The notes beneath the pieces were generated by a model that was given only the letters and a program-made list of their open reading frames with translations, ran no database searches and was not told where the DNA came from. This document shows positions 40,030-62,734 of a stretch of DNA of 64,000 nt, one piece after another. The translations under genes were made by a program, and so were the position numbers. Location of the stretch: contig JBHLLG010000011.1 of NCBI GenBank assembly GCA_048885925.1, forward strand, positions 1,200 through 65,199, written 5' to 3'. How positions within the stretch are numbered: position 1 is the first letter of the stretch; each line of letters starts with the position of its first letter. The stretch is from Candidatus Hermodarchaeota archaeon (GTDB lineage: Archaea > Asgardarchaeota > Lokiarchaeia > Sigyniarchaeales > SOKP01).

Positions 40030-40047
40030 TTTTTCAGAGGTTATACA

Positions 40048-41343: not shown

Positions 41344-41350
41344 TGATTAT

Positions 41351-41731
41351 ATGAAATTTATACTCAATATACAGCGTAAAGTAGATTATGATCAAGCAAA
41401 AGAACTAACATTCGGAGATAACATCTCTTTGAAAGAAAAACTTGCTATAGCTATTTTAAATCCAAATGATTACAAAAAATTAAATTTAACCAAAGATACC
41501 CGAGTAAATTTGATAAGTCAATATGGTCAAGTTATAGTTTCTCCAAAGGAAGAGAAAGGAGTTCCCGAAGGTATGATCATTATGCCTGTAAGTATTTGGG
41601 CAAATAAAATAACAGGAATCGAAAAGGATCAATTAGTTTTTAAAAATATTGAAATATTGGTAGAAGCTTCAGATAAACCGATATTAACATTCCAAGAGCT
41701 AATTCAAGAAATATCTTCGAGGGTGAGATAG
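41351..41731 (+). CDS. fwdD: Formylmethanofuran dehydrogenase subunit D
   Basis: 126 aa with a molybdopterin-dinucleotide-binding beta-barrel pattern (...VNLISQYGQVIVSPKEEKGVPEGMIIMPVSIWAN...). Located between fwdB and fwdA. Confidence 0.7.
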   Translation: MKFILNIQRKVDYDQAKELTFGDNISLKEKLAIAILNPNDYKKLNLTKDTRVNLISQYGQVIVSPKEEKGVPEGMIIMPVSIWANKITGIEKDQLVFKNIEILVEASDKPILTFQELIQEISSRVR

Positions 41732-41733
41732 AG

Positions 41734-46614: not shown

Positions 46615-46983
46615 CTAAAACCATTGCGTCGCATCTACTTCTAATACTAAATCATTTAACGTAGCAGCTCCCACAATTTTAACTCCTGGAATTAATTCTA
46701 CTTTTTCCCAACCTAACATTCTTTTTGAAGCTTCACAGACTAATATTTCAATACCCATATCCAATGTTTTATTAATCATTTCTTTCACACTAGGAAAATT
46801 GCCAAGTTTAATTCTTTCAGCCTCACCAGGCTTTAAAATTCTTAATCCTGTACCTAAATAATAAATAGTTGCATCAAGATCCATTGCTTTAGCAGTTTGA
46901 GCTAATACTAATGGTGAATATTGTCGCTCTGGATTATCACTGGTTTGTACATATAAGATGCGTTTTTTATTTTCAGTAATAAT
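46615..46983 (-). CDS. DsrE/DsrF-like family protein; the conserved N-terminus precedes the listed ATG
   Basis: The listed ORF starts at MDLDATIYYLG. The frame is open upstream and encodes ...IITENKKRILYVQTSDNPERQYSPLVLAQTAKA|MDLD..., the typical first beta-alpha unit of DsrE-like proteins. The extension has no ATG, GTG or TTG. AGGTGG lies just upstream of ATT ATT. Confidence 0.5.
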   Translation of the reverse strand: MITENKKRILYVQTSDNPERQYSPLVLAQTAKAMDLDATIYYLGTGLRILKPGEAERIKLGNFPSVKEMINKTLDMGIEILVCEASKRMLGWEKVELIPGVKIVGAATLNDLVLEVDATQWF

Positions 46984-47174: not shown

Positions 47175-49436
47175 TTACCTATAAATCCCTTCTGGCAATT
47201 CTTTGATAGCTTCCTTGTATGATCTGTTGGCTTTATCTGCGCCTTTTTTAATTTTTTCAATTGCTCTATCAAAATCTTCCTGATTAATTTTAATTTGTGA
47301 ATAAGATTTAGGATTTAATGGGTCAATGTTAGTTTGAAAAACTCCTTTTCGAATTGCTAAAATAGTAGCTTCCTCACATACTGCCTTTATATCAGCACCA
47401 CTATAACCTTCTAATTTCTCAGCTAGTAATTCTATATTAATATCATCACTAATAGGACGTTCTTTCAAATGTATTTCAAATATTTTTTTACGTGAATTCT
47501 TATCTGGTAAAGAAATTTCAATATGTCTCCCAAATCTACCTGATCTTAATAAAGCAGGGTCAAGTAGATCAGGTCTATTTGTAGCTGCGATCAATATTAC
47601 ATCTTTAAGTTCTTCTAAACCATCCATTTCGGTTAGAAGTTGTGCTACAACTTGTTCTGTTACTTTTGAATCTGAGGAATCTGAACGTCTAGATGCGATA
47701 GCATCTATTTCATCAAAGAAAATAATACAAGGAGTTGCAGATCTTGCTTTTCGAAAGGTTTCTCTTACAGCTTTTGCGCTTTCACCTACCCATTTAGATA
47801 TAAATTCTGGACCTTTAACTGAGATAAAGTTAGCTTCAGTTTCATGTGCAAGAGCCTTTACTAGTAATGTTTTACCAGTACCAGGAAGCCCGAATAACAA
47901 GATACCATTTGGGGGTCTTGATTTCATATGTTTATAAAAACCAAGATAAAGTAATGGCCATTCAATAATTTCTTTTAATTGTTGTATTGCATCTTCTAAT
48001 CCACCTATTTCATCCCATCTTTCTGAAGGTTGAGTAATAAAGACTTCTCTTAATGCTGATGGTTCAATAGAATTTAATGATTCAATAAAATGTTTCATTT
48101 TAATCTTTAATCGATTTAGAACTTCTTCGGGGATTGGTTTATCAAGATCAATTTCTGGAAGTATTTCTCTAATAGCAAGCATAGCGGATTCTTTACAAAG
48201 TGATTTTATATCTGCACCGACAAAACCATGGGTTTTCTCAGCAATAAATCTCAAATTCACTTCTTCATCTAAAGGCATTCCTCTAGTATGAATTAATAAA
48301 ATTTCATATCTCCCATTAGTGTCCGGAACTTTAATTTCAATTTCTCTATCAAATCTGCCTGGTCTTCTTAAAGCAATATCAATATTGTTTACTTTATTTG
48401 TAGCTCCAATAATAATAGTTTCTCCTCTGCTTTTCAAACCATCCATGAGAGATAATAATTGGGCAACTACTCGTGATTCAACTTGATTTTTACTTTCATC
48501 TCTTTTTGGTGCAATAGAGTCCAATTCATCAAGAAAAATTATTGAAGTTGCATTTTCTTTAGCTTCTTGAAAAATATTTCTAAGGTTTTCTTCACTTTGC
48601 CCAAAAAATTTACTCATAATCTCAGGACCACTAATAGTAATAAAATGAGCATCAGTTTCAGAAGCAACTGCTTTTGCAATTAAAGTCTTTCCTGTACCAG
48701 GGGGTCCATATAACAATATTCCTTTTGGAGGATCAATACCTATTCGTTCAAAAAGTTCTGGATGACGTATGGGAAGTTCAATAATCTCTCTAATTTTCTG
48801 AATTGTTTCTTCTAATCCTCCAATATCCTCATAAGTAACTCTTTCACTTATCTTTTGGAGCTTTTTTTCTATGTCACTTATTCCTTCATATTTTACTACT
48901 TTCTTTTTTACTTCAATATAATCATGGGATGTTTCTGTAAACGAAATTTTAGTATTTAGATTAATTTTAACTGCTTCAGTTTTTGGCAAGTAATTAACAA
49001 CTACCAGATCAATTCTATGCCCCATTGCGTAAAAACTAAGACTATCACCAAGTGTTACAACTCTTTTTTCTAATTTTCTTGCTAATGCTTGAGGATCACG
49101 TGGGATTAATGAATTATTTAAACCAGTAAAGATTATATTTTCAGCAAAATCAGCATTGATCTTCTTAATTTCCACGAGATCATCAATAGAGGCAGCTAAG
49201 TTTCTTCTTAAGGATGGATCCATCCTAATAATTTGCTTTCCTTTATCTTCATTTCTTCCTGAAGACAATAAAGCAACAGTAATTTTTTTTACAAAGGGAT
49301 GGGAAATTCGAATTGTATCACCAACCTTTAAATTTAATTTACTTATTATACTGGGATCTATTCTTATTATTCCTCTACCCGCATCCTCTTTAAAAGCATC
49401 CTTGATCCTTAACTTATATTCCGGTGTTGTACTCAT
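47175..49436 (-). CDS. cdc48: CDC48/VCP-type AAA+ ATPase (N domain + D1 + D2)
   Basis: N-domain ...[23 protein letters not shown]. Two Walker A motifs ([26 protein letters not shown]) and two Walker B motifs ([16 protein letters not shown]). 753 aa. Confidence 0.9.
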
Positions 49437-49523
49437 ATAAACTCACTTCCCTTTGGTAAATTTATGGTTCATTAAATTTACAAAGTAAAATAAAAAATTA
49501 TTTTGAATTAGATTGCGAGTTAT

Positions 49524-50510
49524 TTATTTTTCAAGAAGTTCCTTTGCAATTTCGAATGCATAATTATAATCAAATACTTTCAAACCCTTTGTATTAGCAG
49601 CTTCTTTTAAAATTTGACTTTCTGAATCTGCTTTTAAACGTCCTAGAGCCAATGCTCCGATTCCAAAAATTCCTGGATAAATTTCATCATTCTTATGTTT
49701 GGGTTTAATACCATCAATACCATAAGGTGGAACCAAATTAATATCTACAACAATTTTCTTGCCATTTAATTTTTTCATTAATTCTTCATTTAAAATCTCA
49801 ACACCCGCTGCAGCTAATGACCATATAATCTCAGCATTCTTTACGACATTAAATCTCTCTTCTAATTTAGGAGCAAAAACACCCTTAATTTTTATTGTTT
49901 GATCCCCTATCTCTTCATTAAGTTCTGTTACTAGTTGTTTAATGAAATATTCATTAGATTTGTCCCAAGTTTCTACTAAATAAGTATTACACCCAATTCT
50001 AGCTGCTAAAATTGCCGCTATTTGCCCCACTGGACCTGCACCGAAAATTACAACTTTCTTATCTTTTAAATCATTAAAGCCATGCTTCTTTTTAGCTATA
50101 TCTATTGTCATAGCGACTACAGCAGAAGCAGTAGTATGAGATCCTCTTGGATCAATTATCACAGGACATTCAAAAGGAGGAACCAACGACTTTATAACAG
50201 CCTTAGCTATTTTTTCTCCTTCTTTAACATCTGAACCTCCAATAAAAAAAGTAGTAGGCGCATTTGGTTTACGTGAAAAAATTGCATCTTGTACCAATTT
50301 AGGTACATTCTCTGCTCTCATCTTACTTATTGGTATGACAATATCAAATCCTGAATCATATGCCATATTTATATCAAATGGTGAAGCATTGTCATCTGTA
50401 TCAAAGAAATAACAAATCTTATCTGAAGTATCTTTCTTTTTAATAATGATAGGGGTCAATTCTATTATCGATTTCTTTCCAAGAATGCTTTCAACCTCTC
50501 TTTCTACCAT
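49524..50510 (-). CDS. MtdA/MtdB-like NAD(P)-dependent methylene-tetrahydromethanopterin/tetrahydrofolate dehydrogenase
   Basis: YFFDTDDNASPFDINMAYDSG..., ...FFIGGSDVKEGEKIAKAVIKS..PPF...IDPRGSHTTASAVVA..., Rossmann VVIFGAGPVGQIAA, and the tail FGIGALALGRLK are collinear with the methylotroph MtdA/MtdB family as I recall it. Confidence 0.65.
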   Translation of the reverse strand: MVEREVESILGKKSIIELTPIIIKKKDTSDKICYFFDTDDNASPFDINMAYDSGFDIVIPISKMRAENVPKLVQDAIFSRKPNAPTTFFIGGSDVKEGEKIAKAVIKSLVPPFECPVIIDPRGSHTTASAVVAMTIDIAKKKHGFNDLKDKKVVIFGAGPVGQIAAILAARIGCNTYLVETWDKSNEYFIKQLVTELNEEIGDQTIKIKGVFAPKLEERFNVVKNAEIIWSLAAAGVEILNEELMKKLNGKKIVVDINLVPPYGIDGIKPKHKNDEIYPGIFGIGALALGRLKADSESQILKEAANTKGLKVFDYNYAFEIAKELLEK

Positions 50511-50551
50511 AATATCAACTCCTATTTTTATAAATTTAATAAAAAAAAATA

Positions 50552-51280
50552 TTAAGAAAGATCAACTTCTAACTCTTTTTCAAAAACTTGCTCAACTGAT
50601 TCTGTTTTAATAGTTCTTTCTATTCTCACTTGTTCGATTTCAATCCCTAATTCTTCTGAAAGTTTCCCAAGTCCAATAAAATGTCGTGGATCACATATAA
50701 ACATACCAATAATTTTATTCCCTTCTATTTCTCTTGCAACATTTAATATTTTCATCATCATCCAAGCTTCTCTAACTTTATATCTTATTTCATCTTCTTG
50801 AGAATCATAGTCTTGTTTTAAATATTCTTTCCATAATACAATTCTCTGAAAAATGTCATCATTTTCAGGAATATTTTGTTTAGTTTTCATAATTTCATTT
50901 ATTCTTCGCTCAAGGTTTTTAATATGGATTCTATGCTCATCTAACGTGGAAGAGAGATATAATTCCGCATTCTCTGAAATATCTGCATAATCAAAAGGAA
51001 TTTTTCGATTTTTAAATAACAATCTAAGCGGTTCATTTGAATTCATGTCATTTTTCCACATATTTGGCCTCTCTTCTAAAGCAAATTTAGGTTTGTATTT
51101 TTCAAGGAGTACATCAATCAATTGAAGATATTCCTTAGAAATTAAATGAAGATTCCAAAAAAGATCTTCTTTTAAATTTTTAGGAATTTCAAACCACCAA
51201 TCGATAGGAAATTCACTCTCTACTAATACCAATTTTAAACTTTTATTTTTTAAAGGTTTTAATTCTAAAACTTCAGGCAT
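50552..51280 (-). CDS. Hypothetical protein, tandem paralogue of 51306..51923
   Basis: The N-terminus MPEVLELKPLKNK is shared with its neighbour (MEVLELKPIENKK). REAWMMMKILNVAREIEGNKIIGMFICDPRHFIGLGKL is weakly TraB/GumN-like. Confidence 0.45.
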   Translation of the reverse strand: MPEVLELKPLKNKSLKLVLVESEFPIDWWFEIPKNLKEDLFWNLHLISKEYLQLIDVLLEKYKPKFALEERPNMWKNDMNSNEPLRLLFKNRKIPFDYADISENAELYLSSTLDEHRIHIKNLERRINEIMKTKQNIPENDDIFQRIVLWKEYLKQDYDSQEDEIRYKVREAWMMMKILNVAREIEGNKIIGMFICDPRHFIGLGKLSEELGIEIEQVRIERTIKTESVEQVFEKELEVDLS

Positions 51281-51305
51281 TTAATATCCCCTCTTTTTAT
51301 TTTTT

Positions 51306-51923
51306 TTATAATATTATTTTTTGTATAGTATGTTTTTTATTATAAGAGATTACTTTTACACCTATTTCTCTTAAATTTTCAACAATTTGTAGACATATAT
51401 CTTCACATATATCTTCTTGAACAAAATGGACAAAAAAAATGGTATCTTTTTTAAATGAGCATGCTATATCCAACATTTTCTTGACGATCCATTGAGGTCT
51501 TAACTTTAAACTAAGAAATATCTCCTTTTCTTGAATTTCTTCACCTAACATATCGATCCAATTTTTTAAACTTTGCCCTTTATAAGATTCTTTATTCTCC
51601 ATCATTTCATATTCTTCAAACAATTCATTTTGAAACTCTTGTTTTTCAATTATCTCTTGATATAAATATCCCATTGCATAATCAGGAATATCTACTTGAA
51701 AATAGGGAATCTTAAGTTCATTCAAGGCTAGAGCAAAAGTAGTTTTACTAAATTCTTTCATATCAACTTGAAAATCAACTGTAACAAAATCAATATTGTT
51801 TCTTTTCAAAAATTCAACTAATTTTGAATGATCTACATTCTGAAAATATCTAGCATTTTCTTTAGAAGATACATATACAACAATTTTTTTATTTTCTATT
51901 GGTTTTAATTCTAATACTTCCAT
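51306..51923 (-). CDS. Hypothetical protein, tandem paralogue of 50552..51280
   Basis: 205 aa with the shared N-terminal motif. ...LRPQWIVKKMLDIA...IFFVHFVQEDICEDICLQ is comparable to its neighbour's C-terminal region. Confidence 0.45.
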   Translation of the reverse strand: MEVLELKPIENKKIVVYVSSKENARYFQNVDHSKLVEFLKRNNIDFVTVDFQVDMKEFSKTTFALALNELKIPYFQVDIPDYAMGYLYQEIIEKQEFQNELFEEYEMMENKESYKGQSLKNWIDMLGEEIQEKEIFLSLKLRPQWIVKKMLDIACSFKKDTIFFVHFVQEDICEDICLQIVENLREIGVKVISYNKKHTIQKIIL

Positions 51924-52033
51924 TTTTAATATCCACCTTCAGAATCAATTCTTTATCAACTAAATTTATTGAATTTATAAAATGATTCATTTATTTTTCA
52001 TATACAACTCTAAGAAGCGTTGTATTTACTCTA

Positions 52034-52128
52034 ATTAAATGATGATTTGAAAAAGATTTAAATAATTTGATAAGAATAATTTTAATCGATTTGACAATAA
52101 AATTTATCAAATTTCTTTTTTGTCAAAT
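52034..52128. promoter_or_regulatory. Conserved intergenic element, copy A, with TTGACAA-type inverted repeats
   Basis: 52034-52110 aligns without gaps to 61194-61270, 61 of 77 positions identical by my count, including the exact 14-mer tgataagaataatt. It contains ttgacaataaaatttatcaa, plus a 9-bp perfect inverted repeat atttgacaa (52089-97) / ttgtcaaat (52120-28). Confidence 0.45.
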
Positions 52129-52658
52129 TTTTTATTCAAGGCTAAAATTAGATTGTTTTATTTTCCCATGATTTTATAAAAAATCATACTATCTTAATTT
52201 GAATATTATTTTTATCATGAAATTAGAAAAAATTAAATTTTTTTATAATATAAGAGAAGTAACATTGGAATGTTTGGTCTTATACTATATATCGTGTGAT
52301 ATATTTATTTTGTTGTTAATATTATTAGATAATATGATTGATTTATATGTATAAATCTATTGAAATTGAATAAAATGATCATTTCCATCTAGTCTAAGTA
52401 GTTTTTCCCAATTACAGGTTTTTGGATCCTTAAAATAAAAGTTAAAGTTTTTATATTTTGACTACCATTTTAATCATGATGATAATTAAAATTCAAAAAA
52501 AACAAATAATTCATTGATAATCAAGATTGTTCATGTTCTATAAAGTTTAATCTGAAGATATATATTCTGCTTTACTCATCCAATTATTTCCAATTTAAAG
52601 CTTTATCGTGAATGTAAAGAAAGTAATTTTTAAAATTGAAATTATAATTATTTAAAAG

Positions 52659-52841
52659 TTGGAGGGAAAAAAAACATTGGTTGAAAAGAAAAAGGAAAAA
52701 GAGTTTTGTCCTATTTGTGGGTTCATTATAGAAGAAAACGATTATATTTATAGACATAAAGGACCTAGTGGGTATAAATGTTCTAACTGTGGATTTTTTG
52801 AGTTAATAGTCGAGAATCAATATTCAATACATCACTATTGA
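52659..52841 (+). CDS. Small zinc-ribbon protein
   Basis: CPICGFIIEEN...YKCSNCG. The start is uncertain: TTG at 52659 overlaps a GGAGGG Shine-Dalgarno-like run, and TTG at 52677 is an alternative. Confidence 0.4.
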   Translation: MEGKKTLVEKKKEKEFCPICGFIIEENDYIYRHKGPSGYKCSNCGFFELIVENQYSIHHY

Positions 52842-52851
52842 TGAAATAAAC

Positions 52852-54057
52852 TTGTTAATCTCAGAATTATCATGTAAAAATATTGGAAATTTTATTAATC
52901 AATGTTATAGTTGTAATCGTTGTGTCAATGTATGCCCCTTATCTCATTTAGGACTTTTTTTTCCAAGGCATTTAATTTCAGATTTAATATTCTCAGGATT
53001 AGAACAGGTTATAACAAATAATAATATTTGGAATTGCCTTACTTGTGGACAATGTTCAATCTACTGTCCTATGACTCAAGAAGCTAAGGGTGTCAATATA
53101 CCTGAATTAATTTTAGAGTTAAGAAAAATTTCTCTTAAAAATAATTCCGAATTAGAAAAGATAGTAAAATGTGAAACTCATAATGATATTTTTACTTTAA
53201 TTTCAAAAATTATGGCAAACAATCCTTTACATCCTGACAAATTAGGATTTCTAAAAACAAAAGGATTAAAAACTTCAAAATCAGGTGAAATTGCTTACTT
53301 TATTGGATGCCTGCCTTTAATGGATGATCTTTTTTATAAATTTGATTTCAATTATACTGACATTCCTTCAACAATAATAAGTTTACTTAATGAAAATGGT
53401 ATTGCACCAGTAGTTTTGAATGAAAAATGTTGTGGACATGATGTTTTTTGGGGCAGGGGTGATATTGAAACGTTTACCAAACTTGCCAATTATAATGTTC
53501 AGCTTTATAAAGACGCTGGAGTAAAAACTATTATTGTTAGTTGTGCTGAAGGATTTAAAACATGGAAATTTGATTATCCTAAAATAATAGATGATTTTGA
53601 TTTTAAAGTATTGCATTTTACAGAATTTTTTCTCAATAAAAAAATTCTTGAAAATGTTAAATTTCCTTACAATTTTAAAATTAAGGTAACTTATCACGAT
53701 TCTTGTCGAATAGGACGTTTAGGAGGAAAATTGTATAATCCTCCAAGAGACTTATTAAAACAGATTCCAGGTGTAGAATTGATTGAAATGGAGTATATTA
53801 AAGATGATGCTAATTGTTGTGGTGTTTCAGCATTTGCAAATTGTAATGAGGCTACACGCTTTCTACGGCAAAATCGTATTAATGAAGCACTTAATACCGG
53901 AGCAGATTACTTAATTGTTCCTTGTCCTAAATGTCTTACACATTTCAATTGTTACATAAATGAAATTTCTTTAAATGAAGAGAATAATGAGCATAGAAAT
54001 AAATTTAAAGTAATTGATTTAGCAAGTTTTATTGGAAAACTGCTAATGTTTGTTTAG
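52852..54057 (+). CDS. HdrD-like protein (HdrC-type 2x[4Fe-4S] + two HdrB-type CCG domains)
   Basis: CYSCNRCVNVCP and CLTCGQCSIYCP are followed by two CCG motifs (EKCCGHD, ANCCGVS) and CPKC. TTG start. Confidence 0.75.
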   Translation: MLISELSCKNIGNFINQCYSCNRCVNVCPLSHLGLFFPRHLISDLIFSGLEQVITNNNIWNCLTCGQCSIYCPMTQEAKGVNIPELILELRKISLKNNSELEKIVKCETHNDIFTLISKIMANNPLHPDKLGFLKTKGLKTSKSGEIAYFIGCLPLMDDLFYKFDFNYTDIPSTIISLLNENGIAPVVLNEKCCGHDVFWGRGDIETFTKLANYNVQLYKDAGVKTIIVSCAEGFKTWKFDYPKIIDDFDFKVLHFTEFFLNKKILENVKFPYNFKIKVTYHDSCRIGRLGGKLYNPPRDLLKQIPGVELIEMEYIKDDANCCGVSAFANCNEATRFLRQNRINEALNTGADYLIVPCPKCLTHFNCYINEISLNEENNEHRNKFKVIDLASFIGKLLMFV

Positions 54058-54114
54058 GTTAAAATAACAAGATTGGAATAAAAATTCAATAAATTTATTT
54101 AATAGCTGTGTTGT

Positions 54115-57100
54115 ATGTTAAATTTGCAGAGTAATGTTTTGGTCATTGGAGGAGGAATCTCAGGGATACAGGCATCTCTAGATCTAACCAAGTTAGGTTT
54201 TAGAGTATATTTAGTCGAAATTCAACCAACAATAGGAGGTACAATGGCCCAATTGGATAAAATATATCCCACCCTAGATTGTAGTTTATGCATCCTTGCG
54301 CCAAAAATGGTTGATGTGTATAGAGATCCAAATATAGAATTATTTACTTATTCTTATGTTAAAAAAATTACTGGAAATGCTGGGAATTATACAATTACGG
54401 TTATAAAAAAGCCAAGATATATAAAAGAAGAGATTTGTAAAGGATGTGGTGATTGTGGAACCGTTTGTCCAGTTAGAGGAATCCCTAGCGAATTCGATAC
54501 CAATTTAAAAACTCGAGGAGCTATTTATATTCCTTTTCCGTCATCAGTACCTCCAATATATATTATCGATGATTCAAAATGTTTATATTTAAATTATCAG
54601 ATATGCGGGCTTTGTGCTAAAGTTTGTACTGCAGATGCTATAGATTTTTTACAAAAATCAGAAGAAATTACATTAAATGTAGGAGCAATCATTATTGCTA
54701 CAGGAAATAATCAGGAAATGCCAGAAAAATATACCAATTTTGCTGGTTCCTCTCCTAATGTCTTATCTAATATGCAATTTGAACGTCTTCTTTCTGCGAA
54801 TGGGCCTACTGGAGGTCAAATCATAAGATTAGATGACAAAAAACATCCTAAATCAATTGGTTTTATACAGTGCGTGGGTTCTCGAGATTTTCATCATCTT
54901 GAATGCAAAAAATATTGTTCTGCAATTTGTTGTATGAATTCGGCAAAGGAAGCAATTGTTGTGAAGGAACATAATCCAAATATTGAATGTTATATTTTTA
55001 ATACAGAAATCAGAGCAAAAGGTAAAAATTTTTATGAGTTTATTGAAAAAAGTAAGAATGAATATAATGTTAAATATATAAATGGACATGTTTCATATAT
55101 TAAAGAGAATTTAGATAATGGAAAATTAAGATTATATTATGAAGATATTGATAAAGGAAAAGTTGGAACTTTTGAAGTAGATATGGCTGTTTTAGCAAGT
55201 GCATTATCTCCGACCCCTTCGTATTATGAACTTTTAAAACAACTTAATGTAGATTGTGACGATTTAGGATATATTCGTGAGGAAGACCTCATTTTACTTG
55301 AAAAAAAGAATGTATTTGTTTCAGGTTATTCTAAAAAACCTAATGATATCCAAATGGCTGTTGCAGAGGGTTCTGCATGTGCAGCAAAAATTAGTGAAAG
55401 ATTTTATCCTTTCAGATTTCAAAATATTAAAAAGGTAGAATATCCCCCAGAAATAACAGTAAGGTTAGAGGATGACCCGCGTGTTGGTATTTTAGTTTGT
55501 CAATGTGGTATCAATATTGGAGGAATTGTTAATGTTTCTGAAGTCGTAGACTATGTTTCTAAATTGCCCTATGTAGTACATGTCGAAGAAAATATGTATT
55601 CATGTAGTTCAGATTCACAAGAACGGATTAAAGAATTAATCATTAAATATAATCTTAATAGATTTATAGTTGCATCTTGTACCCCTCGAACACATGAACA
55701 ACTTTTTAAAAATACTCTCAGAGAGGTTGGATTAAATCCATTTTTATTTGAACTAGTAAATATAAGAAACCAAGATTCTTGGGTTCATCAAAACGAACCT
55801 AAAAAGGCAACTAAAAAAGCCTGTGATTTAATTAGAATGTATTTAGCAAAGGTGATTAACCTAAAACCATTAGAAACCATTAAAGTTAAAGTTAAACAGT
55901 CAACTCTAATAATTGGTGGAGGCATATCAGGAATTACTGCCGCACATAATTTAGGAAATCAAGGGTTTGAGGTTTATCTTTTGGATAAGAGATCTATTCT
56001 TGGAGGCAGCGCACTTGAATTTATAGATTTATACTATATACCTATTACTAAAAATGAAATTTTACAGCAAATTAATGATTTAAAGAATAATTCTAATGTT
56101 CATATTTTATTAAACTCTGAAATTGTTGATGTTCAAGGTTATGTTGGAAATTATCATGTTAAAGTTAAAAATATACAAGAGAATTCAAAAGAACAAATCC
56201 TCAATGTAGGTACAATAATAGTAGCAACAGGAACAAAGCAAATAAAGACAGTTAAATGGAAAGAATTATCAGAACGATATCCCAAACGTGTCCTTACTCA
56301 AACAGAACTTACTGCAATAAATGATGTAGATATTCCTGAGTTTAAGGATGCTACAATAATATTATGCGTAGATCAAAGGAGAGATGTATTTAATGACGCA
56401 GAATACATAAAAACTTATTGTTCAAATATTTGTTGTGGAGTTGCATTAAAAAATGTTGAAAAACTATTAAATATCAATCCTAATGCCCAAATTCACATTT
56501 TATATAGAGAATTTCAATTTACAGATTTAAACGCTGAAAATCTATGTCGAGGGCTTCGGAAGAAAGCAATATATGAAAGATATCACTCTATTAATGATAT
56601 CAAAATCAGTGATGAAAAAGATCACTTCCATATTATATATAAAAATATAAGCGCTCAAACAGATATAGAGTATAATACAGATTTATTAATATTAGCTACT
56701 CCTAACGTTCCTTTTGATGATACTAAAAAATTAGCTAAATTATTAAAGGTATCCACAAATAAAGATGGATTTTTCTTAGAAGCAGATGCAAAGCTTAGAC
56801 CAATAGATTTTGCCACTGAAGGTATATTTCTATGTGGAGGAGCTCATTGGCCAAAATGGATTGGAGAAAGTATAATTCAAGCTTATGGTGCTGCCGGAAG
56901 AGCAACAATAATTATGGCTAAAGGAGAAATAGAAACTGAATCTATAACTTCCTATATAGACGAGGAAAGATGTATCGGTTGTGGTAAATGTATTGAGATT
57001 TGCCCATATAATGCTATTGAATTGATAGAAAGTCGTAAAAAAATGGGTTTATACAATATAAGTTTAAGAAAGTCACGTATAATTAAGGCTCTTTGTAAGG

Positions 57101-57228
57101 GTTGCGGAGCTTGTGTTGCAGAGTGTTCAGTTGGAGCTATTGATCAGAATCACTTCAGTAAATTTCAAATTAGCAAAATGATCGACTTATTAACTGATAT
57201 TGATATAGTAGATTATGAAATTATTTAA
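54115..57228 (+). CDS. hdrA: Tandem HdrA-HdrA fusion protein (1037 aa)
   Basis: Two FAD dinucleotide motifs (VLVIGGGISGIQASLDL, LIIGGGISGITAAHNL). Module 1 has YPTLDCSLCILAPKM and an inserted ferredoxin (CKGCGDCGTVCP). Module 2 begins with the HdrA N-domain (GILVCQCGINIGG...IVASCTPRTHE...NIRNQDSWVH) and ends with a 2x[4Fe-4S] domain (CIGCGKCIEICP, CKGCGACVAECS). Confidence 0.85.
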   Translation: MLNLQSNVLVIGGGISGIQASLDLTKLGFRVYLVEIQPTIGGTMAQLDKIYPTLDCSLCILAPKMVDVYRDPNIELFTYSYVKKITGNAGNYTITVIKKPRYIKEEICKGCGDCGTVCPVRGIPSEFDTNLKTRGAIYIPFPSSVPPIYIIDDSKCLYLNYQICGLCAKVCTADAIDFLQKSEEITLNVGAIIIATGNNQEMPEKYTNFAGSSPNVLSNMQFERLLSANGPTGGQIIRLDDKKHPKSIGFIQCVGSRDFHHLECKKYCSAICCMNSAKEAIVVKEHNPNIECYIFNTEIRAKGKNFYEFIEKSKNEYNVKYINGHVSYIKENLDNGKLRLYYEDIDKGKVGTFEVDMAVLASALSPTPSYYELLKQLNVDCDDLGYIREEDLILLEKKNVFVSGYSKKPNDIQMAVAEGSACAAKISERFYPFRFQNIKKVEYPPEITVRLEDDPRVGILVCQCGINIGGIVNVSEVVDYVSKLPYVVHVEENMYSCSSDSQERIKELIIKYNLNRFIVASCTPRTHEQLFKNTLREVGLNPFLFELVNIRNQDSWVHQNEPKKATKKACDLIRMYLAKVINLKPLETIKVKVKQSTLIIGGGISGITAAHNLGNQGFEVYLLDKRSILGGSALEFIDLYYIPITKNEILQQINDLKNNSNVHILLNSEIVDVQGYVGNYHVKVKNIQENSKEQILNVGTIIVATGTKQIKTVKWKELSERYPKRVLTQTELTAINDVDIPEFKDATIILCVDQRRDVFNDAEYIKTYCSNICCGVALKNVEKLLNINPNAQIHILYREFQFTDLNAENLCRGLRKKAIYERYHSINDIKISDEKDHFHIIYKNISAQTDIEYNTDLLILATPNVPFDDTKKLAKLLKVSTNKDGFFLEADAKLRPIDFATEGIFLCGGAHWPKWIGESIIQAYGAAGRATIIMAKGEIETESITSYIDEERCIGCGKCIEICPYNAIELIESRKKMGLYNISLRKSRIIKALCKGCGACVAECSVGAIDQNHFSKFQISKMIDLLTDIDIVDYEII

Positions 57229-57240
57229 TTTGGGGGATTT

Positions 57241-57720
57241 ATGCTGATAAAAATTAAAAAAGTAAGAAATAATGAATTTGAGCCTAAGATACTTGTTTTT
57301 TGTTGTAATTGGTGTAGTTACGCTGGTGCAGACTTAGCAGGAGTCTCGAGATTCCAATATCCCCCAAACATTAGGATTATTAGGGTAATGTGTTCTAGCA
57401 GGGTTGAACCAATATTTGTTCTACGAGCCTTTAATAATGGAATAGATGGAGTATTAATTATTGGATGTCACATGGGAGATTGCCATTATATGAAAGGATT
57501 TGAATATACTCAAGATAGAATGGATCATTTAAAGAAGTTAATAAAATGTATTGGGATTGAAGCAGATCGATTTCAATTGCACTCCATTTCTGCAAGTGAA
57601 GGAAAACAATTTTCAGAATTAATTAAAGAATTCACAGAAAGAATTACAGGATTAGGAGAATTAAAAATTCCTAAAAAATCAGGAATAATTGAATTAGAAT
57701 CTAATTATAAAACAAATTAA
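57241..57720 (+). CDS. mvhD: MvhD-type (F420-non-reducing hydrogenase delta subunit-like) [2Fe-2S] protein
   Basis: ILVFCCNWCSYAGADLAG...IRIIRVMCSSRVEP...GIDGVLIIGCHMGDCHY is the canonical MvhD/FlpD pattern. All positions are Cys, with no TGA. Confidence 0.85.
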   Translation: MLIKIKKVRNNEFEPKILVFCCNWCSYAGADLAGVSRFQYPPNIRIIRVMCSSRVEPIFVLRAFNNGIDGVLIIGCHMGDCHYMKGFEYTQDRMDHLKKLIKCIGIEADRFQLHSISASEGKQFSELIKEFTERITGLGELKIPKKSGIIELESNYKTN

Positions 57721-57734
57721 AAAGAGGAATTAAA

Positions 57735-58850
57735 ATGACTGAATTAGGGTTTCAGAAACTTGAGCAAAGCAACGTAAAAAATTTTCAGGATCTTCAGAAC
57801 GAAATAATTAAAACTAATAAATGTTGTGCATGTGGAGCTTGCATAGCATATTGCGAGAGTCAAAGTTTTGATGTTATTGAGATGAACGGCTACATTCCTG
57901 AGTTTAAATCAGAAAAAAGTGTTAATAATTGTACTAAATGTGGTGTCTGTTATTATATTTGCCCTCAAACTAATATATTATTAAAAGAATTAAATGATAC
58001 TTATTGTATTGAAGATAAAATTGGGCATATTTCCAAAATTTTTGCTGCTAAAACAACAGACTTAGCATTAGAAAAAGTTGGACAGGATGGAGGTGTTGTT
58101 TCGGCAATTCTAACATTTTTATTTGAAAAACATAAAATTGATGCAGCAATTGTTTCAGAATATAATGCCAACTTTGAACCTGTCCCAAAAATTATATTTG
58201 ATAAAGAAGATTTATTCAAATCAGCAGGTACACGTTATTCTATTTCTCCTCAAATATTCCCTTTAAAAAACTTATATACCATACCGCAAGAGATTCTTAT
58301 GAAAAAGGAAATATTTGATATTGACCAGCTAAGAATTGCATTTATAGGAACTCCTTGCCAATGTAGAGCAGTTAGTAAAATGAAGTTTTTATTCGTGAAA
58401 CCAGCTCATGTCATTAAGTATATTATAGGTCTTTTCTGTTATGAGAATTTTATTTATTCTCAACTATATGATATTTTACAAAGAGAAACAAAAGTTGATC
58501 CTACTAATATCAAGAAAACTTGGATAAAGAAGAATTTCTTTATTCAAACTAAGGATAATAAAGAATTTGAAATTAATATCAAAACTTTAAATGCTGCAGT
58601 TAGAAATAATTGCCTTGAATGTGATGAATTCACAGGAAGATTTACAGATATTAGTATTGGAGCATCTGGAGCTCCAGAAGGATATTCTATGATCCTAATT
58701 AGAACTGATAATGGAGAGAAAGTGATAAATAATATGCTTTCAAAAGGAATACTTGAACAATTTATTGTTCCATTTAACAAAACTATTGAGTGGAAAAATA
58801 AGAAATTAGATTGGTTTAATAAATTAATTTCTTTAAAAAACAAGCAGTAG
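57735..58850 (+). CDS. FrhB/FdhB/FpoF-family flavoprotein with N-terminal 2x[4Fe-4S]
   Basis: CCACGACIAYCE and CTKCGVCYYICPQ, then GQDGGVVSAIL...IAFIGTPCQCRAV...GLFCYENF...CLECDEFTGRFTDISIG (FrhB_FdhB N and C domains). Confidence 0.8.
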   Translation: MTELGFQKLEQSNVKNFQDLQNEIIKTNKCCACGACIAYCESQSFDVIEMNGYIPEFKSEKSVNNCTKCGVCYYICPQTNILLKELNDTYCIEDKIGHISKIFAAKTTDLALEKVGQDGGVVSAILTFLFEKHKIDAAIVSEYNANFEPVPKIIFDKEDLFKSAGTRYSISPQIFPLKNLYTIPQEILMKKEIFDIDQLRIAFIGTPCQCRAVSKMKFLFVKPAHVIKYIIGLFCYENFIYSQLYDILQRETKVDPTNIKKTWIKKNFFIQTKDNKEFEINIKTLNAAVRNNCLECDEFTGRFTDISIGASGAPEGYSMILIRTDNGEKVINNMLSKGILEQFIVPFNKTIEWKNKKLDWFNKLISLKNKQ

Positions 58851-58987
58851 AATCTTTATTAACAAATATTTTTAACTTTAATAAAAATAACCAATCTTTT
58901 AATCACTTCAAATTAATTTGAACTGAAGATATAAATTCATATCAATTATTATTCTATATTTTTCTGAAAACCCATACGATGGGTTAG

Positions 58988-59022
58988 TCTCCTCTCAACT
59001 AATATTTTTTTGAGAAGATCAT
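58988..59022 (-). promoter_or_regulatory. Candidate SECIS element (AUGA-helix-GA, k-turn-like) in the 3' UTR of the Sec-HdrA gene
   Basis: Minus-strand RNA 11 nt after the stop: AUGA(59022-19)-UCUUCUCA(59018-11)-AAAAAAUAUUAGU-UGAGAGGA(58997-90)-GA(58989-88). The arms form 8 pairs (7 Watson-Crick plus 1 G.U) and the apical loop is A-rich. Confidence 0.45.
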
Positions 59023-59033
59023 TCCTTTCCAGA

Positions 59034-61070
59034 TTAAGTGTGATAAGGAGCTAATGCTTCAATCTTTTTCCAAATAAGTTCAATAGATTCAATATATTCT
59101 TCCTTATATTCAAGTTCAGTATTACAAATGCCTTTTATCTCTTCAACAATTTGTTTATCTCTATAATATTTAAGATCAATTGCCCTAGCTGGACAGGATG
59201 ATACACAAACACCACATCCTTTGCATTTCAATTCATCTATTTCTGCAATTTTATCTCCATTAACCATTACAGCCTTGTAATTACATAATTTTTCACATCT
59301 ATGACAACCAATACATAGATTTTCATTTATTTCAGCAATTATTAATTCTTGAACGATTGCATCTTTTGATAGTAATGTAGATGTTTTACTCGCTGCAGCT
59401 AATGCTGTTGATACCGAGTATGGGATATTTTTTGGGCCAGCAGCACACCCACAAATATAAATTCCCATATTATTAGTTTCTTGAGGTTTTAGACATCCAT
59501 GAACTTCAGATAAAAATCCATTAATATCTTTACTTAAACCTAATGTCTCAATTAATTTTGTTGTATTCTTAGAAGGGATCATGCCCGTTGATAATACAAC
59601 AAGATCTGTATTCATTGTTATCATATCATTTGTTAAGGTTGAAGAAGCTGTAATTTTGAGGTTTTTTGTTATTGAATCTTCTCGTATATCACCAACTTTT
59701 CCTCGAATCATCATAATCCCTGCTTCTCTCACTTTTCTATAATATTCTTCATTCCCTTTATCCCATGTACGCATATCTATATAAAAAATGGCAATATTAA
59801 TATCAGGATATTCTTGTTTTAACAGTTGAGCATTCTTAAGAGCAACATTACAACATACTCCTGAACAATAAGGATTTCCTTTTAAAGATCTCGAACCAAC
59901 ACATTGAATCATAGCTACTGTTTCTGGGATTCTTCCATCAGAAATTCTATAGACATGACCCCCTGTTGGTCCAACTGGACTTAACATGCGCTCTAATTCT
60001 ATTTGAGTAATTACATCTGGATAAATTCCATATTTATAATCATTATTTTTCATAATTGGATATTCATCCCATCCTGTGGCAAGAATTACAGCACCAACTC
60101 TTATATCAATAAATTCTGGCACCTGTTCAAAATCAATAGCTTCTGCTTGACACAATTTTTGACAATTTTTGCATTCTATGCACACATTCTTATCAATTAT
60201 CGCAACTTTAGGTACAGCTTGAGGAAATGGTATATAGATTGCACTACGTTCACCAATACCACGATTGAATTCATTAGGTACTGTTATAGGACATTTTGTG
60301 GTACATAATCCGCATCCTGTACACTTTTTTTCGTTAACATAACGTGGATTTTTTTGTATTCTAACATTATATTTCCCAGGAATACCACTAAATCCAATAA
60401 TTTCACTATAAGTCAGAAGGGTTATATTTGGGTGTTTTGAAGCATTTACCATTATAGGGGCTAAAACTCATATAGCACAATCGTCAGTGGGATAAATTCT
60501 ATCTAATTGTGCCATTTTTCCACCAATAGTTCCTTCTTTTTCGATTAGAAAAACTCTCACTCCCTGATTTGCTAAATCTAATGCAGCATTCATCCCAGCA
60601 ATTCCAGCACCTATTATTAATACTGATTTCTCCACTGAAATTTTTTTATACGGAACAATCTCTAATTCTCGAGCACGATTGATACCTGCTTGTACTAATC
60701 TTATAGCTTTTTCAGTTGTATCTTTTTTATTATTTGAAGATATAAATGAGCAATGTTCACGAAAATTTACCATTTGAAAATAATATGGATTTAATCCTGC
60801 TTCAGCTAAAACTGCTCGATAAGTAGACTCATGAATTTTTGGTGTACAAGCAGCTACAACTACTCGGTTTAAATCTAAATCCAAAATATCGTTCTTGATA
60901 AGATTTTGCCCTGGATCACTGCAAGTAAAATCATTTGCTCTAGCTATAATGATATTTGGGAGTGCTTCAACATAATCTCTAATAAGGTCACAATCAATAC
61001 TGGCTCCTATATTAACTCCTCATCTGCAAATATACACTCCGATTCTTGCAATGGTCTGTTTTTCAGACAT
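59034..61070 (-). CDS. hdrA: Heterodisulfide reductase subunit A homologue, predicted selenoprotein with two in-frame UGA (Sec) codons
   Basis: Three collinear same-frame pieces: ATG 61070...ICR-TGA(61022-20)-GVNIGAS..., ORF 60468..60884 ending ...IYPTDDCAI-TGA(60470-68), then VLAPI + ORF 59034..60452. The TGAs align with Cys of VCQCGINIGG and of DCSLCILAPKM in the neighbouring HdrA (54115..57228). The full HdrA domain order is restored (678 codons). Confidence 0.85.
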
Positions 61071-61193
61071 CTAATTCACCCTTCCAAACCTCACCAAATA
61101 TTATTCTATAATAATATCTCAAGATTTTGTTTTGAGAAAAAAAACTAAATTTACATAAATGTAAGTATAATTATTTTATTGTACTTTATCCCG

Positions 61194-61270
61194 ATTAAAT
61201 AATGAATTAGAAGAGATTTAAAAAATCTGATAAGAATAATTATAGTCATTTTGACAAATGAATTTGTCAT
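61194..61270. promoter_or_regulatory. Conserved intergenic element, copy B, with a perfect palindrome
   Basis: Gap-free match to 52034-52110. It contains TGACAAAT-GA-ATTTGTCA (61252-61269). A related site, ttgacaatcatatttatca, lies at 61418-61436, 75 nt upstream of the ATG at 61511. Confidence 0.45.
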
Positions 61271-61510
61271 TATTATATAAAATGTATTGATTTGGTCTTT
61301 GATTTGATCTTAATCCAATATAGTGTTTACCTTTTTCTTTGTATTGTGCAAATTATCGATAGTGACAATTATGTTTTATGGGAAAACTTTTAGTCAAGAT
61401 GATCATATTTATATAGTTTGACAATCATATTTATCATAGAGATCATAAAAATTATTAAAATAGTCATAATAAATTTTATGATTATAAAATTAATTTAGTG
61501 ATTTTTCATA

Positions 61511-62644
61511 ATGAGGATAAAGACTTTTAAAGATTTAATTGAAGAAGTTCATAAACCAGGTATTTGTCAAGAATGTGGGGGTTGTGTTAGTTTTTGTAAT
61601 TCAATTAAATATGATGCAATTGGGTTTAAAAAGCCTAATTCACCTCCGGAGTACTTAAATGAAGATAAATGTCTTGAATGTGGAATTTGTTATTTTATAT
61701 GCCCACAGACACATATTTTAGATGAGGATTTAAATAAAACTTATAATTTTTCAGATAGTACAAAAATGCCTTTAGGATTTATAGATAGTATTTACTCTTG
61801 CCAATCTTTAGATGATGAATTTTTAAAATATGGAACAGACGGAGGTGTTGTGAACTCTATCATTAATTATTTAATAGAAAAAAATTTTATTGAAGGAGCA
61901 ATTGTAGCAAAAACAACATCACCTTTTAATAGGGAATCGATAATAGCTAGAAACAAAAAAGATTTAATTGGTGCTTCGGGTGTCAAATTAGATATAACTC
62001 CTCAGCTAGAAATTGTACAAAAGTTTCATACTTATACGAGTTCATTACCCAGTTTAAGGCATTATAAATTTAAAAAAATAGCATTAGTAGGCACACCTTG
62101 TCAGATTTATACGATTAGATGTATGCAAGAATTAGGTATTATTCCATCTGAGAATATCGAGATTTGTCTAGGATTATTTTGTTATGAGAATTTCTTTTTT
62201 GACAAAGAGAGGGTAGAGAAATTCGAAAAATACTTTAAGCTTAAGTTTAAAAATATTGAAAGGGTAAACATAAAGGAAAATTTAATTATCAACATAAAAA
62301 ATAAGAAAAATCCTCAAAAAACTATTCATATTCCATTTGAAAAATTAACTGATTATTCACGTCCAGCTTGTAGTGTTTGTAAAGATTTTACGAATATTTA
62401 CGCAGATATTTCATTTGGAGGATTAGGTTCACATGATAAATATACAACTGTAATCACACGCACTAAAAAAGGGGAGGAATTAATCAATAAAGCGCTGCGA
62501 GCAGGTGTAATTAAAAGATTTAGATTAGATAGCTCCAATTTAAAGGATTTAAAAGAAACATTAATACAATTTACTCAGTTGAAGTTAAAGCGAACAGAAG
62601 AAAATATGAGATATAAGATGATAACAGGGAAATCGTCATCATGA
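61511..62644 (+). CDS. FrhB/FdhB/FpoF-family flavoprotein with N-terminal 2x[4Fe-4S] (paralogue of 57735..58850)
   Basis: CQECGGCVSFCN and CLECGICYFICPQ, then GTDGGVVNSII...IALVGTPCQIYTI...GLFCYENFF...CSVCKDFTNIYADISFG. Confidence 0.8.
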   Translation: MRIKTFKDLIEEVHKPGICQECGGCVSFCNSIKYDAIGFKKPNSPPEYLNEDKCLECGICYFICPQTHILDEDLNKTYNFSDSTKMPLGFIDSIYSCQSLDDEFLKYGTDGGVVNSIINYLIEKNFIEGAIVAKTTSPFNRESIIARNKKDLIGASGVKLDITPQLEIVQKFHTYTSSLPSLRHYKFKKIALVGTPCQIYTIRCMQELGIIPSENIEICLGLFCYENFFFDKERVEKFEKYFKLKFKNIERVNIKENLIINIKNKKNPQKTIHIPFEKLTDYSRPACSVCKDFTNIYADISFGGLGSHDKYTTVITRTKKGEELINKALRAGVIKRFRLDSSNLKDLKETLIQFTQLKLKRTEENMRYKMITGKSSS

Positions 62645-62734
62645 TCTTCTATATTAAATAAAAAGTAATCATATTTAACTTAAATAGAATTTTAATCATT
62701 TTCTTAATATTTAAACTAGGGAGGGAGAAAATAA

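Follow-up and report, generated by a model that had tools for sequence, protein, structure and literature searches.

An FrhB-linked type II HdrA operon in a Lokiarchaeia-type Asgard archaeon and the Hdr-type complex that it may encode

Gene clusters in which a fused type II HdrA is encoded together with MvhD and with FdhB or FrhB homologues, and which have been read as F420H2-dependent, are published for anaerobic methanotrophic archaea (ANME) and methanogens (PMC9012536, PMC12054007), and a complex of FrhB-like and MvhD-like subunits with heterodisulfide reductase (Hdr), termed Elp-Hdr, has been purified and its structure solved (PMC12350162). In Asgard archaea, clusters of HdrA-FlpD with hydrogenase are known from Helarchaeota (PMC6478937) and duplicated HdrA fusions have been noted before in Loki- and Thorarchaeota (PMC11237513); genome papers on these archaea usually annotate their Hdr genes as an electron-confurcating MvhADG-HdrABC hydrogenase. 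In the literature searched we found no description of an FrhB-linked type II cluster in Asgard archaea. Here we analyse a stretch of 64,000 nucleotides from contig JBHLLG010000011.1 of a Candidatus Hermodarchaeota archaeon, which we call the window, and within it an operon of five genes encoding a zinc (Zn)-ribbon protein, an HdrD-like protein, a fused type II HdrA (HdrAA), an MvhD connector and an FrhB-family flavoprotein (FrhB1). We propose, giving the proposal an even chance of being correct, that this operon encodes a hydrogenase-independent complex of the Hdr type that is asymmetric, has a donor of the F420 type and carries out flavin-based electron bifurcation or confurcation.

The five-gene operon and its products

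The five open reading frames (ORFs; Table 1) all lie on the plus strand of a window of about 28% G+C, separated by gaps of only 10, 57, 12 and 14 nucleotides, and their order is kept in relatives whose proteins share 48-94% identity gene by gene. This conservation, together with the short gaps, means that the arrangement is not due to chance, and the five genes are one real operon of a Lokiarchaeia-type Asgard archaeon. The original prediction, made from the letters of the DNA, had listed five closely spaced, co-directional genes of this content, and the Pfam and NCBIfam domains agree: searches with hidden Markov models, run on 39 ORFs of the window including every ORF of at least 205 amino acids, matched FlpD, FrhB_FdhB_N and FrhB_FdhB_C, two CCG stretches and the HdrA2/HdrA models. 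Gene order, the content of domains and ligands, and their conservation are thereby observed directly. The best relatives of HdrAA are proteins of 1030-1060 amino acids from metagenome-assembled genomes (MAGs) of Promethearchaeota/Lokiarchaeia and other Asgard archaea, with identities from 94% down to 48%. The relative at 94%, P0001, stood in for the window protein; a look-up of the exact window sequence gave no record.

The HdrA2/HdrA models match HdrAA in three stretches, and the protein contains two GxGxxG Rossmann motifs for flavin adenine dinucleotide (FAD). Residues were assigned by phmmer and a MAFFT alignment to the HdrA of PDB entry 5ODC (5ODC_A), which matches in three collinear stretches covering query residues 7-377, 453-625 and 852-1024. 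In the first half, the motif DCSLC supplies C56 and C59, the latter corresponding to Cys197 of 5ODC; an inserted 2x[4Fe-4S] ferredoxin has its ligands at C108/111/114/118 and C156/164/167/171; and the cysteines of the HA4 cluster (C253/268/272/273) are accompanied by E223 and K278, the equivalents of E356 and K409. In the flavin core of the second half, the alignment finds neither DCxxC nor the inserted ferredoxin, a loop of about 14 residues (ER...GPTGG) is deleted, and the position equivalent to E356 is a threonine in this clade and a glutamate in other Asgard clades, the alignment being gapped there. The same core retains HA4-like cysteines (C751/769/773/774) and K779. All ligand cysteines of HdrAA, as well as E223 and K278 of the first half, are invariant in 61 Asgard homologues; invariant columns are most frequent in the N-terminal-type domain (37%), intermediate in the half-1 core (23%) and least frequent, among folded regions, in the half-2 core (15%).

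HdrAA holds two thioredoxin-reductase-like FAD domains in a single chain, with complementary losses: the first half has Cys197 and lacks the N-terminal domain, and the second half is the reverse. It is the published type II HdrA (PMC12054007), the counterpart of the fused HdrA3/HdrA4 (PMC9012536). We considered whether the wording of PMC9012536, which puts the N-terminal domain on the N-terminal half, might be the sign of a different family, and rejected this as an issue of description, since the opposite order, with the Cys197 half first, is also that of the Methanosarcina and Methanoperedens homologues. Four HdrA-type half-modules had been predicted in the 1037-residue protein; the fusion stands and the number does not, for there are two HdrA-type flavin modules with complementary accessory domains, whose predicted non-equivalence, the second lacking DCxxC and the inserted ferredoxin, is borne out by the alignment to 5ODC. 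The complementary domains are exactly the pattern from which Chadwick et al. 2022 (PMC9012536) proposed self-heterodimeric partnering for fused HdrA. A single-chain AlphaFold2 model of HdrAA, built with 61 sequences, has a mean predicted local distance difference test score of 81 and a predicted template modelling score of 0.86, which over the whole 1037-residue chain indicates a defined, compact arrangement; with this model Foldseek places HdrA chains on top, with a template modelling score of 0.91 for the core. By homology, one complete bifurcation unit would remain in HdrAA.

The MvhD protein matches Pfam FlpD with 182 bits (gathering cut-off 22.3), which places it in that family, and is similar to 5ODC_D (4e-47) and to ElpC, 8RVU_F (8e-45); the motifs CCNWC, MCS and GCHxGDCHY are conserved. 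The N-terminal part of FrhB1 is a 2x[4Fe-4S] ferredoxin domain (C30/33/36/40 and C66/69/72/76), and after it comes an FrhB-type FAD/[4Fe-4S] core; the protein belongs to the Pfam families FrhB_FdhB_N (63.9 bits, cut-off 22) and FrhB_FdhB_C (125.3 bits, cut-off 23.3). Its closest solved relatives are F420-reductase subunits of Ca. Ethanoperedens (8RJA_E, 1e-46; 8RIU_B, 4e-36), followed by FrhB, Fsr and ElpB/FdhB. A fusion of the sulfite-reductase or glutamate-synthase type was rejected for this gene, whose product of 371 amino acids has only Fer4 and the FrhB N and C domains.

A scan of one genome per GTDB species yielded 594 confirmed relatives, and the loci of the best 80 were compared (loci and contigs of relatives bear L numbers below). 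These best 80 match over the full length at 36-49% identity, in Asgard archaea, ANME-2, Methanoperedens, Methanosarcina, Methanimicrococcus, Thermoplasmata, Bathyarchaeia, Desulfobacterales, Chloroflexota and Bacillota. Most of them have mvhD directly downstream of the fused HdrA gene and an HdrD-like or HdrC gene nearby. The gene after mvhD varies: Desulfopila, Methanomassiliicoccales and Bathyarchaeia have MvhG/MvhA there, Methanosarcina and Methanimicrococcus an FdhB-like gene, and other loci a NuoE-like gene or one for a further flavoprotein or ferredoxin. From this variation we infer that donors can be swapped at the slot after mvhD, which in the Asgard orthologs is taken by FrhB1, and this supports FrhB1 as the donor or acceptor module. 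The order HdrAA-MvhD-FrhB is kept in Asgard orthologs of 69-94% identity, whether a hydrogenase is nearby or not. The prediction that electrons enter through an FrhB-like protein rather than a hydrogenase agrees with this conserved trio, with the 14 nucleotides between mvhD and FrhB1 and with the swappable slot, and we regard the FrhB-like module as the likely electron input or output of the operon.

A second type II HdrA cluster of Asgard genomes, a paralog at 48-49% identity (L085, 3875-13547; L002-L006; L040) that lacks a hydrogenase, has the order (split selenocysteine-HdrA)-FrhB-FrhB2-like-HdrD-HdrAA-MvhD, and contig JAHPZE010000001.1 appears to hold both an 84% ortholog and such a 48-49% paralog. 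Early in-frame stops were seen in the type II HdrA genes of L026 (Desulfosarcina variabilis), L010 (ANME-2), L059 (Desulfotomaculum) and L021, that of L026 lying near the DCxxC position, which suggests that interrupted type II HdrA genes of other phyla are candidate selenocysteine versions of the fused protein.

The HdrD-like protein combines a 4Fe-4S dicluster domain with two CCG stretches (93.5 bits in Pfam). With 129 bits, TfrB is its best NCBIfam match, far short of the cut-off of 385, and HdrC models reach 33-44 bits against cut-offs of 160-350; among solved structures, only its HdrC-like part is matched, by HdrC. The eight ferredoxin cysteines are invariant in 40 homologues and the second CCG motif is complete (C285, C322, C323, C358, C361). 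The first has four of the five cysteines (C153, C193, C194, C231), with a glycine at 234 where at least 70% of the homologues have cysteine, and, CCG-1 being incomplete, the protein does not have the two complete CCG motifs (CXnCCGXmCXXC) of a coenzyme B-coenzyme M (CoB-CoM) heterodisulfide reductase.

Two CxxCG knuckles (CPICG, CSNCG) and the motif DYIYRHK mark the Zn-ribbon protein, whose Pfam matches, of the Zn-ribbon or rubredoxin-like kind, are all sub-threshold. We take its ORF to be a real gene, because the four cysteines and the motif DYIYR[HR]K are kept by its positional counterparts in L001, L081/L082 and L083, which are 48-91% identical. A database of 5.8 billion proteins returned three relatives only, so that this search gave no functional lead.

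The proposed complex and its alternatives

We infer complex formation, the use of F420, bifurcation, its direction and the acceptor from homology, and the electron path that follows is drawn on the solved Mvh-Hdr, Fdh-Hdr and Elp-Hdr complexes. In solved Hdr complexes the C-terminal ferredoxin domain of HdrA is the docking side for MvhD, and in Elp-Hdr and Fdh-Hdr a mobile arm, consisting of HdrA's N-terminal and C-terminal domains, MvhD and the donor, serves the FAD'/HA4'/HA5' and the inserted ferredoxin of the partner protomer (PMC12350162). In HdrAA, an arm from half 2 with the core of half 1 is the only complete combination, and we therefore propose a complex with one site. FrhB1 would exchange hydride between F420(H2) and its FAD, and electrons would reach the [2Fe-2S] cluster of MvhD from the [4Fe-4S] cluster of FrhB1 by way of the N-terminal 2x[4Fe-4S] domain of FrhB1. 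MvhD would sit on an arm of HdrAA made up of the C-terminal ferredoxin and the N-terminal-type cluster domain, both in half 2, and this arm would serve the flavin core of half 1, since that is the sole core with Cys197 (C59), the inserted ferredoxin and invariant equivalents of E356 and K409. There the FAD would split the electron pair, sending one electron via HA4 to the HdrC/HdrB-like fusion and a putative disulfide-type acceptor, and the other to ferredoxin, by way of the N-domain cluster and the inserted ferredoxin domain; the ferredoxin so reduced could feed, for example, a formylmethanofuran dehydrogenase whose genes lie some 9 kb upstream. The complex might run in reverse, from reduced ferredoxin and thiols to F420H2, in a cell that ferments in syntrophy. 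The flavin core of half 2 would probably be a scaffold or a simple relay, and the Zn-ribbon protein a lineage-specific small subunit or carrier. We count in favour of one site that the half-2 core is the least conserved and has threonine in place of E356, and in favour of the donor that FrhB1, among solved structures, comes closest to F420-reductase subunits with the same N-terminal docking domain; in Ca. Ethanoperedens these dock through that ferredoxin domain on Fwd and on carbon monoxide dehydrogenase (CODH) (PMC11493965).

Several points weigh against this proposal. The 69% ortholog L084 has HdrAA-MvhD-FrhB only, with no HdrD-like gene adjacent, so that the high-potential branch may be a non-obligatory part of the complex. 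A second active site in half 2 is possible, because the FAD motif, an HA4-like cluster and the K409 equivalent are kept there. The HdrD-like protein, by its scores and its incomplete CCG-1, is not an equivalog of HdrB, HdrC, HdrD or TfrB, and neither CoM/CoB nor another substrate is identifiable from its sequence. FrhB1 falls under every NCBIfam equivalog cut-off (161 against 331.5 bits for FrhB; 137-143 against 444-475 bits for FpoF), the Pfam FrhB families include enzymes that do not use F420, such as BciB and HCAR, and its own predicted use of F420 rests on family resemblance; PMC11493965 yielded no usable residue-level detail on the F420 pocket. In syntenic relatives, genes for an Mvh-type hydrogenase lie about 5 kb downstream of FrhB1, and this enzyme could in principle dock on the free MvhD. 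Biochemical data on a type II HdrA with an FrhB partner do not exist (PMC12054007).

Some of these points would be accommodated if there were no bifurcation and HdrAA-MvhD-FrhB formed a plain ferredoxin:F420 oxidoreductase that wires reduced ferredoxin to F420, with the HdrD-like and Zn-ribbon proteins as accessory or regulatory components. The arrangement in L084 fits this, as do the incomplete CCG-1 and the lack of an evident substrate for a disulfide reductase, and the same model has been proposed for the frhB-hdrA-mvhD clusters of Korarchaeia (PMC10667645). However, a plain reductase would need no such elaborate protein: the whole bifurcation-type cofactor set of half 1 is invariant, including the E356/K409 equivalents, CCG-2 and both HdrC-type clusters are invariant as well, and HdrD-like or HdrC/HdrB genes adjoin most type II loci across phyla. 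We consider a non-bifurcating enzyme unlikely.

The hydrogenase question bears on a second alternative, in which the complex would be H2-dependent, the free MvhD docking the products of downstream MvhG/MvhA genes and FrhB1 being an alternative, interchangeable donor. In the window itself, Pfam and NCBIfam found no hydrogenase subunit among the 39 ORFs, tblastn with the MvhG/MvhA of a relative gave no match with E<1, and a motif scan for the [NiFe] large subunit was empty, all in agreement with the predicted absence of both subunits from the window. L081 follows window positions 47680-64000 collinearly as far as the last base, about 91% of the nucleotides being identical, has an HdrAA that is 94% identical, and continues past the window end with the rest of an 849-residue DUF7347-HdrA-MvhD fusion, an Oxidored_q6 protein (best match VhuG) and a NiFeSe_Hases protein (best match VhuA); L083 (81%) and L001 (84%) carry the same island. 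Counted from the window end, the MvhG-like gene of these collinear contigs starts after about 1.3 kb and the MvhA-like gene after about 2.0 kb, and we assign them to a group-3 [NiFe] hydrogenase. That MvhG/MvhA directly follow type II HdrA-MvhD in other phyla, and that donors are known to be exchanged in methanogens (Fdh and Vhu in Methanococcus maripaludis, cited in PMC9012536), would suit an H2-dependent complex. Against it, the hydrogenase genes stand in an operon of their own (FrhB2, a helix-turn-helix (HTH)-HdrA-MvhD fusion, MvhG, MvhA) with their own HdrA and MvhD domains, the minus-strand selenocysteine-HdrA gene intervening, and neither in the cluster of the L084 ortholog nor in that of the L085 paralog does a hydrogenase occur within 10 kb. 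The idea that the hydrogenase is part of the five-gene operon was accordingly rejected, its genes forming a separate, co-directional operon beyond the minus-strand gene, and the arrangement of Mvh:Hdr, with mvhA and mvhG inside the hdrA-mvhD operon, is not found here. The original description of a hydrogenase-less module is thus right for the operon and wrong for the locus, where, in the collinear contigs, mvhG/mvhA-like genes lie just outside the window but in another transcription unit, half of what the original prediction had named as refuting it. We judge dependence on H2 to be improbable.

A third alternative keeps the architecture and changes the carriers: FrhB1 might use a cofactor other than F420, or be a ferredoxin- or flavin-dependent module. 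Its scores under all equivalog cut-offs are compatible with this, the adjacent Mpt_N-type dehydrogenase belongs to an NAD(P)-type family, and no biochemical demonstration of F420 production exists for the Asgard archaea, whose Lokiarchaeota MAGs are reported to contain complete F420 biosynthesis (PMC8498797). Set against these points, every named solved relative at E<1e-7 is a subunit of an F420-dependent enzyme, and the domain layout of FrhB1 is identical to that of the proven F420-reductase subunits 8RJA and 8RIU, which leaves this alternative, in our estimate, a small chance. A fortuitous neighbourhood of redox genes without a joint complex is very improbable, for the gaps of 10-57 nucleotides, an order conserved over 48-94% protein identity and the solved complexes formed by homologous components all speak against it.

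Taking the bifurcating, F420-linked complex as the preferred reading, we can extend it into a broader picture that we hold to be speculative and on balance doubtful. Non-methanogenic Asgard archaea would operate an Hdr that bifurcates at one site, is linked to F420 and works on a thiol/disulfide couple that is not CoM/CoB, the thiol being that of a small molecule or of a protein, conceivably with a part for the co-encoded four-cysteine Zn-ribbon protein. The operon would belong to an Hdr island, together with the adjacent FrhB2-HdrA/MvhD-MvhGA operon and the two-selenocysteine HdrA, and this island would keep F420, ferredoxin, H2 and the Wood-Ljungdahl pathway in balance. No genes for CoM or CoB synthesis or for Mcr are among the ORFs profiled in the 64 kb of the window. 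If this picture were true, it would give a concrete, testable core of redox metabolism in archaea related to eukaryotes. The locus sharpens the question of what Hdr reduces in archaea without CoM and CoB. In the Lokiarchaeia-type genome at least three HdrA systems of different kinds lie next to each other, one of them connected to an FrhB-type (probably F420) module instead of H2. Should the five-gene complex be as proposed, it would provide a route independent of H2 between F420, ferredoxin and a putative disulfide in organisms that are central to syntrophy-based models of eukaryogenesis, and a naturally asymmetric, one-site HdrA for the study of flavin-based bifurcation.

Neighbouring genes

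Downstream of the operon, on the opposite strand, lies a type I HdrA gene with two in-frame TGA codons, whose two selenocysteine positions may be ligands of the same N-domain [4Fe-4S] cluster, across the dimer. About 12 nucleotides after its stop codon begins a Loki-type selenocysteine insertion sequence (SECIS) of the shape described in PMC4989117; it was found by folding, Rfam at the gathering threshold giving no match in the window, the SECIS included. Multi-selenocysteine HdrA is known in Lokiarchaeota (PMC4989117), where it is reported to be always followed by VhuD with a shared SECIS, whereas the gene in the window has no following VhuD and a SECIS of its own. The combination fits a selenocysteine-using Lokiarchaeia-type archaeon (PMC4989117, PMC11227280). 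The FrhB2 operon beyond it, at 13911-19624 on L081, has the order FrhB2-HdrA/MvhD-hydrogenase without HdrB or HdrC, and the combination of FrhB, HdrA/MvhD and hydrogenase with a DNA-binding-type domain on HdrA is odd.

Upstream, FwdB (above its NCBIfam cut-off), FwdD and FwdA are encoded at 40048-43389 (+), with a gene for a 155-residue ferredoxin-like protein first (region 39562-43389). Formylmethanofuran dehydrogenase, whose genes lie about 9 kb from the Hdr operon, consumes low-potential ferredoxin. An iron-sulfur carrier of the MrpORP type is encoded at 38450-39301 (-). Divergent from the Hdr operon, at 49524-51923 (-), are an Mpt_N gene of the methylene-tetrahydromethanopterin dehydrogenase type and genes for proteins of 242 and 205 amino acids without family match; all three are kept beside the Hdr operon in L081, L082, L083 and L001, and the Mpt_N gene product of L083 has 561 amino acids. 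A CDC48 gene is also upstream on the minus strand. Between it and a VWA_CoxE gene, an 89-residue ORF at 46615-46884 (-) occupies the place of a 114-residue DsrE-family gene in L082 and may be a shortened gene of the sulfur-relay type.

Farther away, positions 12001-16000 have a G+C content of 0.35 against about 0.28, with an 821-residue ORF at 12654-15119 (-) that has no Pfam match, and many ORFs in the first 20 kb of the window are without family match. Positions 23300-24574 (-), 19470-20810 (-), 27014-28507 (-), 43771-44973 (-) and 9755-10600 (+) encode a protein with a SUFU domain (110 bits), three of the NosD/beta-helix type and a CBM96 protein.

Table 1. Features of the operon and its downstream neighbours, in window positions (aa, amino acids; Sec, selenocysteine)
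Feature	Positions	Strand	Details
Zn-ribbon/rubredoxin-like gene	52659-52841	+	60 aa; TTG start; ORF call
HdrD-like (HdrC + HdrB fusion) gene	52852-54057	+	401 aa; Pfam, NCBIfam
Fused type II HdrA (HdrAA) gene	54115-57228	+	1037 aa; HdrA2/HdrA models
HdrAA half 1, thioredoxin-reductase-like FAD core, aa 1-430	54115-55404	+	Without N-terminal domain; starts at Rossmann motif
HdrAA half 2, N-terminal-type cluster domain, aa 453-590	55471-55884	+	C462, C464, C497, C522; aligns with 5ODC_A 2-140
HdrAA half 2, flavin core, aa 591-940	55885-56934	+	GGGISG; 5ODC_A alignment
HdrAA C-terminal 2x[4Fe-4S] ferredoxin, aa 941-1026	56935-57228	+	C953/956/959/963 + C994/997/1000/1004; aligns with 5ODC_A 483-647
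MvhD/FlpD [2Fe-2S] connector gene	57241-57720	+	159 aa; Pfam FlpD
FrhB1, FrhB-family flavoprotein gene	57735-58850	+	371 aa; Fer4 + FrhB_FdhB_N + FrhB_FdhB_C
Loki-type SECIS	about 58985-59022 (approximate)	-	By folding: AUGA, 9-bp stem, 11-nucleotide A-rich loop, GA
Type I Sec-HdrA gene, two in-frame TGA	59034-61070	-	TGA at 61020-61022 (Cys13 position, ICRUG) and 60468-60470 (Cys197 position, DCAIU)
FrhB2, second FrhB-like gene	61511-62644	+	377 aa; about 32% identical to FrhB1; first gene of hydrogenase-linked operon
Third HdrA gene, N-terminal winged-helix (DUF7347)	62735-64000	+	Cut by window end; 849-aa HdrA-MvhD fusion in relatives

Comparison with known systems

The type II HdrA clusters of ANME and methanogens are like the window operon in having two cores in one chain, a complementary distribution of the N-terminal domain and Cys197, and mvhD followed by a gene of the FrhB/FdhB family. 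The proteins of Methanosarcina, Methanimicrococcus and Methanoperedens are 38-41% identical to HdrAA, run collinear with its residues 1-1030 and have their motifs in the same order. Unlike these clusters, among them those of HdrA3/HdrA4 (PMC9012536) and the type II HdrA-MvhD-FdhB-Molybdop cluster (PMC12054007), the operon belongs to a non-methanogenic Asgard host and has no non-catalytic molybdopterin partner of the FdhA/ElpA kind, the sole molybdopterin protein of the window being FwdB, about 11.5 kb upstream of the operon start. Further differences are that FrhB1 has its ferredoxin domain first and is only distantly related to the FdhB proteins of those clusters (E 1e-14), that HdrC and HdrB are fused, and that there is an additional Zn-ribbon gene.

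As in Elp-Hdr and Fdh-Hdr, an FrhB-family subunit and an MvhD homologue are encoded with HdrA. In the Elp-Hdr complex of Methanothermobacter marburgensis (ElpABC-HdrABC, PDB 8RVU/8RVY), the FrhB-family subunit, which oxidises F420H2, is connected via the MvhD homologue to HdrA and replaces the Mvh hydrogenase, and the similarity extends to the sequences, both for MvhD and ElpC, as given above, and for HdrAA and the HdrA of Elp-Hdr (4e-175). Elp-Hdr itself is a symmetric dimer with a type I HdrA, separate HdrB and HdrC, an ElpA scaffold and CoM-S-S-CoB as substrate, whereas the window operon has an HdrA that is a fused pseudo-dimer, a single HdrCB fusion, no ElpA and a putative disulfide-type substrate, and ElpB matches FrhB1 weakly (9e-17). 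The subunits of Ca. Ethanoperedens thermophilum (8RJA chain E, 8RIU chain B; PMC11493965) share with FrhB1 the ferredoxin-first layout and the FrhB-type core, but their docking partner is Fwd or CODH and not, as proposed here, MvhD/HdrA. The domains and ligands of HdrA, MvhD and the clusters of the HdrC type can all be recognised from MvhADG-HdrABC of hydrogenotrophic methanogens (PDB 5ODC), but the operon departs from that complex in lacking MvhA and MvhG, in its asymmetric, fused HdrA and in a fusion of HdrB with HdrC whose first CCG motif is degenerate.

By description, MetFV-HdrABC-MvhD of Moorella thermoacetica and the frhB-hdrA-mvhD clusters of Korarchaeia (PMC10667645) are likewise Hdr modules of non-methanogens with MvhD and an alternative partner; the Moorella HdrA has been described as a fused two-domain HdrA (PMC9012536), and its partner, unlike that in the window, is MetFV. 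The design is therefore not new, each of its elements having precedent, and the operon is a new Asgard example of it. What is particular to this locus is the Asgard host, the lack of an ElpA/FdhA-like scaffold, an FrhB1 with the ferredoxin domain first, an HdrC/HdrB fusion with a degenerate CCG-1 and a lineage-specific Zn-ribbon protein.

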